NCBI GenBank assembly: GCA_944392105.1
Contig: CALXVM010000007.1
Span: 3,624 to 67,623, forward strand
Origin: an uncultured Clostridia bacterium
Lineage (GTDB): Bacteria > Bacillota > Clostridia > TANB77 > CAG-508
DNA: 64,000 bases
Reading direction: 5' to 3'
The number at the start of each line of letters is the position of its first letter. Position 1 is the stretch's first letter. This document shows positions 29,748-29,887 of the stretch, in pieces. The notes below the pieces were generated by a model, which had not been told where the DNA came from, did not search any database, and worked only from the letters and a program-made list of their open reading frames with translations. Made by a program: the position numbers and the translations under genes.

Positions 29748-29887
29748 GTACAGTAATAAGTGTCTTTTATAATTTTTAAAACCTTTCCCCTTTTGGACAG
29801 CTGTAACTCGGCATAAATGCCTCGAACAGCTGTCACAATGGTCCCCACGTAAGGCTTAAAAATTATAAAAGACACTTATTACTGTAC
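29748..29887. repeat. hairpin-borne conserved core element, copy A
   Basis: 32-bp perfect arms (GTACAGTAATAAGTGTCTTTTATAATTTTTAA and its reverse complement) around a 76-nt core. The core is near-identical to the one at 35072-35143. Confidence 0.8.

Follow-up and report, generated by a model that had tools for sequence, protein, structure and literature searches.

A multi-copy palindromic element with an invertible core at gene 3' ends of uncultured gut Clostridia

What kind of element is formed by two long hairpins with one conserved core was the question raised by a 64,000-nt stretch (hereafter the window) of the uncultured Clostridia bacterium assembly GCA_944392105.1 (contig CALXVM010000007.1, positions 3,624 to 67,623 of the forward strand). 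The window is part of a low-GC (~27%) Clostridia chromosome with genes mainly on the minus strand, and two of its intergenic regions each carry a hairpin of ~140 nt built around a common GC-rich core of ~74 nt, here called copy A and copy B. An earlier note on this DNA had regarded the pair as a two-copy family and had proposed either a structured RNA or a small module inserted into terminator loops. In the present analysis, the family was found to be multi-copy, to stand at gene 3' ends in both orientations, to be gained or lost between close species, and to have a core that inverts. The element is not a riboswitch, a ribozyme or a trans-acting small RNA (sRNA). With moderate confidence, copies A and B were interpreted as members of a non-coding palindromic repeat family scattered through uncultured Clostridia of the human gut (the Clostridium sp. 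CAG:273 group), belonging to the class of ERIC, REPIN and MITEs (transposable elements of the miniature inverted-repeat type).

The two hairpins and their family

Copy A was delimited at 29747-29888 by sequence, inverted repeat and fold, and was recovered by nhmmer with the family profile at E = 8e-40. Its left arm (29747-29779), which is homologous to the family arm consensus, and its right arm (29856-29888), identified by inverted-repeat search, are 33 nt long and 100% complementary. Between them lies the conserved asymmetric core (29780-29855, plus strand), defined by sequence, pattern scan and family alignment. It contains the CCTT/AAGG junction (29782-29785 and 29851-29854), two CCCC tracts on the plus strand (29787-29790 and 29843-29846) and a predicted inner hairpin (29796-29834), in which a 9-bp stem formed by GACAGCTGT (29796-29804) and ACAGCTGTC (29826-29834) is capped by GGCA-TAAA-TGCC (29810-29821). 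Copy B was delimited at 35039-35177 by sequence, two inverted repeats and DNA fold (nhmmer E = 2e-38). Its arms at 35039-35070 and 35145-35177 were located by sequence and inverted-repeat search, and its core (35071-35144, plus strand), supported by the same three lines of evidence as that of copy A, has the junction TCTT...AAGA and the family-typical T/C mismatch in the 9-bp stem (GACATCTGT opposite ACAGCTGTC). The junction pairs, stem and cap described in the earlier note were thus all found in the sequence, and so was its count of three substitutions and one indel between the two cores (stem G/T, one G indel, T/C, final G/A). Its statement that the arms are perfectly self-complementary held for copy A and failed for copy B, whose arms are near-perfect (93% over 28 nt and 100% over a further 20 nt): five T in the left arm face six A in the right arm, an uncompensated one-base indel that leaves a one-base bulge, and other strains have 5T/5A or 6T/6A. 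In the window, a 40-nt core pattern matched two sites and no others, 29795-29834 without a mismatch and 35084-35123 with one, and shuffled sequence gave no match. Folding was far more stable than that of shuffled sequences, both as RNA (copy A, z = -12.9 on the plus strand and -11.6 on the minus strand) and as DNA (z = -12.2 to -13.7; -13.7 and -12.4 for the two strands of copy A, -12.2 and -12.5 for copy B).

When the core 20-mer was scanned against species-representative genomes, it was found in at least 50 loci of seven human-gut Clostridia metagenome-assembled genomes (MAGs), including Clostridium sp. CAG:273 and MGYG-HGUT-04078. Blastn within those loci gave at least 58 copies, which replaces the notion of a two-copy family. 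Copy number differs widely among genomes; the window has no members besides copies A and B, and no degenerate copy was detected in it by nhmmer with the family profile. The family consensus reads AAAGTATTAGAATTGTCTTTTTCAATTTTTAAAACC / TTTCCCCTTTTGGACATCTGTAACTCGGCATAAATGCCTCGAACAGCTGTCACAATGGTCGCCCACGCAAGG / CCTTAAAAATTTCAAAAGACAATTCTAATACTTT. The arms of copies A and B, previously described as only weakly similar, are both diverged versions of the family-wide arm consensus GTATTAGAATTGTCTTTTTCAATTTTTAAAACC; since this consensus is shared, the arms belong to the element and travel with the core. The unit is accordingly a quasi-palindrome of ~140 nt, with AT-rich arms of ~35 bp around a GC-rich core, in its turn an imperfect palindrome whose asymmetries are fixed. 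The core carries two ACAGCTGT palindromes 29 bp apart and a 10-nt one-sided bulge (TCGCCCACGC). At locus B of the window species, one sequence (L060:1932-2003) shows a 10-nt tandem duplication within this bulge, CTTGCGTGGG being present twice. The 9-bp stem is invariant across the family except for a recurrent G/T mismatch at window positions 29800 and 35089 (alignment column 64), where G gives a perfect stem and T a mismatched one; the site has switched repeatedly, with ~14 copies having G and 37 having T in several backgrounds, and strains differ at it in locus A. The idea that the core is coding (MPRTAVTMV...) was rejected: the open reading frame (ORF), read by eye, measures only 11-14 aa, lacks a Shine-Dalgarno sequence and is broken by the indel that separates copies A and B.

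Both window copies lie between co-directional minus-strand genes, as had been stated before: copy A has a GH25-LysM lysozyme gene on one side and an ABC transporter operon of the NitT/TauT type on the other, and copy B is flanked by the gene for a 563-aa membrane protein and by dprA. Across the family, the flanking genes were convergent in 19 cases, co-directional with the core in sense in 15, co-directional with the core in antisense in 10 and divergent in 1. Most copies stand just downstream of a stop codon, the position expected of a terminator, mostly at a distance of 10-70 nt and in either orientation. For most copies, at least one gene terminates no more than 100 nt away (36 instances upstream in sense, 29 downstream in antisense), and the orientation of the core relative to the nearest upstream gene was 36:29. 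No real copy is intragenic; the single copy flagged within an ORF (L010) was judged spurious. Many of the MAG copies are nested in a larger unit of ~270 nt with an outer inverted repeat, AAGAAGCTGTCCTAAAAT...ATTTTAGGACAGCTTCTT, and two different AT-rich spacers, X and Y, lie between this outer repeat and the hairpin.

The element is present or absent at the same site in related genomes. At the locus orthologous to copy A, a CAG:273 scaffold (L033) carries it. A sister species with an ABC ATPase 94% identical has a lysozyme-ABC gap of 59 nt without the element, which is also absent at this locus from relatives whose ABC ATPases are 88% and 81% identical, so that the window species and CAG:273 stand against three relatives. 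The sister species lacks the entire 500-nt intergenic stretch, and therefore no clean excision footprint can be read; among the loci collected for the family, none was an orthologous empty site, all being occupied. A comparison of the window with CAG:273 gave 84-87% identity in the coding flanks, no possible alignment in the surrounding intergenic DNA, and 97% identity in the core, which means that the core is either constrained or repeatedly refreshed. The outer arms drift while the core stays conserved.

Core inversion and covariation of the arms

Among seven orthologous pairs, the core was inverted relative to its flanks in three. The window and CAG:273 form one of these pairs, and in another the flanks are 99% identical. 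Inversion was also found within the window species: at locus A, eight assemblies have the orientation of the window, and one (L054) has an exactly inverted core between unchanged arms, so the segment between the inverted repeats occurs in both orientations across strains. Relative to the X and Y spacers, the orientation of the core splits only ~2:1. The L054 sequence also differs outside the element, with a microsatellite-like AT-rich insertion of ~200 nt between yraN and the lysozyme gene (L054:414-745) and a lysozyme-element spacer that is 120 nt shorter.

The change from CCTT/AAGG in copy A to TCTT/AAGA in copy B had been described as compensatory. Covariation was counted over 38 predicted pairs in 52 copies, with 500 shuffles and slid registers as controls. 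Changes on both sides were found in 15 of the 38 pairs (12 of 19 in the distal arm, 3 of 5 in the cap stem, none in the 9-bp stem), and all covariation measures were above 500 of 500 shuffles and every slid-register control. Covariation is thus real in additional copies, and it is not specific to RNA. Double changes (105 cells) vastly exceed one-sided G·U intermediates, and many of them are transversion swaps, such as UA to AU or GC to UA, which are impossible via a G·U intermediate. Outside two fixed columns, scattered G·U cells numbered 41 on the plus strand against 58 on the minus strand. The choice of a strand from G·U counts was abandoned, as the asymmetry reduces to those two columns and one tandem mismatch. 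Strains of the window species show compensated substitutions (L061 against L063) and compensated indels (L062) as well as uncompensated intermediates (L064 and window copy B), and for one arm polymorphism all four combinations of left and right arm were seen (L051, L055, L056 and L057).

It has been reported that template switching between the arms of an inverted repeat leads to arm homogenisation and to inversion of the spacer (PMC8604942), and that it can keep hairpins perfect without selection on RNA (PMC8794818). The present repeat shares both features with these short inverted repeats, arm homogenisation and reversible spacer inversion. It differs in that its spacer is ~76 nt and is itself conserved, against 3-5 bp in the inverted spacers observed in that work, where spacers up to 70 bp were searched (PMC8604942); moreover, template switching is a mutational process and not a class of element. 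Since arm homogenisation together with core inversion is the signature of this process, the covariation does not demonstrate an RNA, and the junction change between copies A and B is better explained by homogenisation of the arms at the DNA level, given the many transversions, the 41 and 58 G·U cells and the flipping of the core. Both the near-perfect arms and the "compensatory" changes could be upheld by template switching during replication or by gene conversion between the arms, and the same DNA-level process may flip the core. These results are a caution for RNA discovery: perfect stems with abundant "compensatory" changes can arise without constraint at the RNA level, and covariation-based screens could take such repeats for structured RNAs.

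Comparison with known repeats and competing explanations

The window and eight other loci were searched against Rfam with the gathering threshold as well as with E-value limits (E<=10 for the surroundings of copy A, E<=1 for the eight loci), and no family was assigned to the element, in agreement with the earlier failure to match it to a riboswitch or ribozyme class. Among plasmids and phages, blastn in distant mode with copy A and with the full 271-nt nested unit gave only one 38-nt chance match. Three scans of viral contigs (including IMG/VR) gave zero or unrelated matches, and a gapped pattern gave one unrelated GC-rich match in JGI metagenomes. No description of this repeat was found in the literature on CAG-273 and on MITEs in Clostridia. 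The family is therefore apparently undescribed, of a known kind. The consensus sequences of hammerhead, twister, pistol and attC were also compared by eye, without a formal test, and no resemblance was noticed.

ERIC/IRU repeats are imperfect palindromes of ~125-140 bp in which the centre is highly conserved. They stand outside genes but within transcribed DNA, in either orientation, and occur in tens to hundreds of copies conserved across related species. No transposase is known for them, and their mobility is still unexplained. The present repeat resembles them in size, palindromy, conserved centre, extragenic position, occurrence in both orientations, copy number and the lack of a known transposase. 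It differs in having an unrelated sequence, a host among the Bacillota instead of the Enterobacteria of ERIC, arms far more variable than the core, a documented core inversion, and many copies nested in a second inverted repeat. With the RAYT-mobilised REP/REPIN elements it shares high-copy extragenic palindromes at gene 3' ends, long hairpins, and a conserved motif presented on a hairpin to a presumed enzyme binding single-stranded DNA (ssDNA). Unlike REP/REPIN, its consensus has no GTAG/CGTC tag, it is not visibly made of two inverted short REPs, and conservation lies in its loop instead of its arms; 8-kb stretches around the copies of the 50 loci showed no RAYT-like gene. As for bacterial MITEs such as Correia, RUP and bcr1, the repeat is likewise small (below about 300 bp), non-coding, dispersed in multiple copies, flanked by inverted repeats and polymorphic in presence, and it can likewise supply hairpins or terminators to neighbouring transcripts. 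It departs from MITEs in the reversed gradient of conservation and in arm sequences that co-vary, and no parent insertion sequence with the same terminal repeats and a transposase was found in the 50 loci, plasmids, phages or viral contigs.

Transcribed within a 3' untranslated region (UTR), the long hairpin may act as a bidirectional transcription barrier or as a protector of the 3' end. REP, ERIC and Correia elements act in these ways. The invariant asymmetric core implies a binding partner and probably serves, given its strong conservation, as a module recognised by a protein; this protein, by which the element would be spread or maintained, could be a transposase, an HUH-type enzyme or a nucleic-acid-binding protein of the host. 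Identification of this partner could show how ERIC-like repeats spread.

Several observations weigh against this interpretation. Conservation peaks at the centre of the element and is lowest at its outer ends, the reverse of a MITE of the terminal-inverted-repeat type. No target-site duplication was found at copies A and B; some nested copies have a weak TAAAAT-like repeat, in AT-rich sequence. An all-against-all comparison of the 368 ORFs of the 50 loci revealed no multi-copy ORF, and hence no autonomous partner or transposase; the genes between the paired copies of L004, read by eye and not by domain search, looked like sporulation-type housekeeping genes. Nor does the inner hairpin look like a canonical intrinsic terminator, none being called by a scan: the base of the inner stem is AU-rich with only CUUUU, and the next 8 nt contain on average ~3.2 to 3.8 T. 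Finally, the strands are not equivalent. Two A·C columns of the consensus on the plus strand are G·U on the complement, and the tandem TC/TC mismatch becomes GA/GA. In RNA folding the complement was the stabler strand in 51 of 52 copies (means -61.0 vs -51.5 kcal/mol), and the plus strand of the core lies on the strand of positive GC skew 33:14. All seven copies in which the core is flipped relative to X and Y follow this skew bias. These asymmetries are few and were seen in copies that are not independent. The strand-specific consensus features and the strand-biased RNA stability make a strand-specific function possible, exerted either by an RNA or, at the replication fork, by ssDNA.

One rival explanation is a structured non-coding RNA, either a multi-copy sRNA or one derived from the 3' UTR. 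Its arms would clamp the core, and its C-rich tracts would act as anti-Shine-Dalgarno sequences in the manner of RsaE/RoxS, or its GGA/G-rich tracts would bind a protein such as CsrA. The contrast of a strongly conserved core with variable arms, the covarying cap stem, the G·U and tandem G·A pairs fixed on the one strand that folds ~9.5 kcal/mol better, and the position of the plus strand on the positive-skew (mostly sense) strand all speak for it. So does a resemblance in architecture to TwoAYGGAY, a gut-Clostridia RNA proposed as a CsrA sponge, in which a conserved core is combined with tandem GAs and an external stem of low conservation (PMC4333381). TwoAYGGAY (RF01731) was the only Rfam signal for the element, at 25.3 bits and E = 0.16 against a gathering threshold of 43, and this alignment covers the outer stem only and skips 97 core positions of the model. 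The present element shares with TwoAYGGAY its occurrence in human-gut Clostridia, a conserved core within a long, poorly conserved stem and tandem G·A pairs, and differs in lacking AYGGAY terminal loops, the only comparable motifs being AUGGUC and UUGGAC, which flank the 9-bp stem. We nevertheless judge an RNA of this kind unlikely. The better folding of the G-rich strand is expected anyway, the scattered G·U cells favour neither strand, the covariation is dominated by double transversions, and no Rfam family matched at threshold. The core flips among strains and species and is almost evenly oriented with respect to the nearest upstream gene, which, together with covariation that is not RNA-specific, argues against the suggestion of an RNA in need of a long clamp. 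The RsaE/RoxS reading needs a fixed transcribed strand and is thus unsupported given the 36:29 orientation, and in the window both copies show the G-rich strand, not the C-rich one, to the transcripts of the flanking genes. Promoters offer no help either: a conserved promoter is lacking, promoter-like sites are not enriched at the copies, the core has no promoter consensus, and a candidate promoter in the X spacer (TATTATAAT) was rejected for want of a conserved -35 and for a linkage to core orientation of only ~2:1.

Another explanation, derived from the earlier note, is that the core is mobile by itself and jumps into loops of unrelated terminator hairpins already in place, so that the arms would be host terminators. 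Some parts of it were borne out. The element is a small repeated module instead of a unique gene, it is absent at the same site in the sister species, its hairpin units stand at terminator positions, and many of them are nested in the outer, terminator-like inverted repeat. That repeat (GCTGTCC...GGACAGC followed by TTCTTTT) looks more terminator-like than the inner stem, but encloses ~190-250 nt. One outer hairpin without an insert was also found (L043:7181-7239), with a loop identical to the Y spacer of occupied copies. This empty hairpin is a single case and is not orthologous to any occupied site. That the arms are pre-existing local terminators is not supported, as they share the family consensus and so travel with the core. 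The outer repeats, too, share a consensus, together with the element-specific motif GGACAGC, which occurs in the 9-bp stem of the core and in the outer repeat and is rare elsewhere: over 444 kb it was counted 24 times, 17 of them inside or close to an element. Taken together, insertion of the core into host terminators is quite unlikely. It was also noticed that the core resembles two outer-repeat ends set head to head.

More speculatively, flipping mediated by the arms could toggle the core and make dozens of 3' UTRs alternate between two hairpin RNAs, one C-rich and anti-Shine-Dalgarno-like, the other G-rich with a near-perfect duplex and tandem GA pairs; alternatively, the core could be the cis site of a novel mobilisation enzyme of the Bacillota that recognises hairpin loops. 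Both versions are a long shot at present. If true, the toggled core would amount to a flip-flop type of control, heritable and distributed, at the post-transcriptional or ssDNA level.

The element might instead be a host signal at the DNA level, displayed by a cruciform or by ssDNA and recognised by a protein of the nucleoid or of replication, repair or uptake, with the two ACAGCTGT palindromes as candidate binding sites. Consistent with this, the core is conserved across species beyond the adjoining DNA, GGACAGC recurs in core stem and outer repeat, core orientation is biased with respect to GC skew and not with respect to genes, and the two strands fold equally well as ssDNA. Such a signal is nonetheless very improbable, given the absence of the element at the same locus in the sister species, the wide variation in copy number among genomes and the confinement to gene 3' ends. 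In a comparison of consensus sequences by eye, without a formal test, dif, parS, Chi, KOPS/SRS and uptake sequences did not match the core.

Least probable of all is a programmed inverton, in which a site-specific recombinase would flip the core and alter the downstream operon (the ABC transporter at A, dprA at B): perfect inverted repeats do flank a segment whose orientation varies within one species (L054 against eight other strains) and both window copies lie upstream of operons, but the invertible segment is only ~76 bp and without promoter consensus, the inverted-repeat sequences differ among copies, no invertase or recombinase gene was found near them, most copies lie between convergent genes or behind genes and not in front of them, and template switching accounts for the inversion without a dedicated enzyme (PMC8604942).

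The palindromic repeat favoured here had not been annotated previously, and its host lineage, CAG:273 and relatives, is prevalent and uncultured; 701 blocks of the assembly collection list the ABC ATPase gene that adjoins copy A. Possible uses of the repeat are as a marker for strain typing, as a recognised cause of assembly breaks, or as a handle on terminators and mRNA 3' ends in low-GC genomes.

Other features of the window

Downstream of copy A, a promoter-like site of the ABC transporter operon (CTCACA-17-TAAAAT, 29590-29618, minus strand) provides context only; its motif is kept in relatives without the element. Directly adjoining copy B, ~7 tandem copies of a 40-bp unit (…TTTTATTATGCGCAAATAAGTCTTAGACATATTCCAATCG…) were found at 35156-35475, and the intergenic length at this array varies among strains, which suggests a variable-number tandem repeat. 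Between the two copies, at 31968-33361, a comM/Mg-chelatase-like gene is split into two overlapping ORFs of 181 aa and 296 aa. Other assemblies of the window species also have two calls for this gene, the first of 105-181 aa, and one relative has it intact (511 aa); the split gene represents either a fixed frameshift or a pseudogene. The Rfam search found three minus-strand tRNA genes in the window (2694-3033) and, in one of the fetched loci, a 6S RNA (L025:3697-3883, 102 bits).

A CRISPR array with at least 32 repeats of 30 nt (ATTTATATTCTACTATATTTAAATTACTAC) occupies 40865-43000, inside a type I-B-like cas locus whose genes lie at 39080-40659 and 43148-49993. A CRISPR array usually stands at the end of the operon; this one lies between cas3 (43148-45337) on one side and cas4 (40159-40659) and cas1 (39080-40072) on the other. 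After cas3 follow genes for Cas6, a CXXC-type large subunit, Cas7/DevR and Cas5. Furthermore, a lone 40-nt imperfect palindrome with arms resembling the CRISPR repeat (ATTTATATTCTAATATATTTAGATTA) was observed at 50789-50872, by a deaminase gene and ~8 kb from the array.

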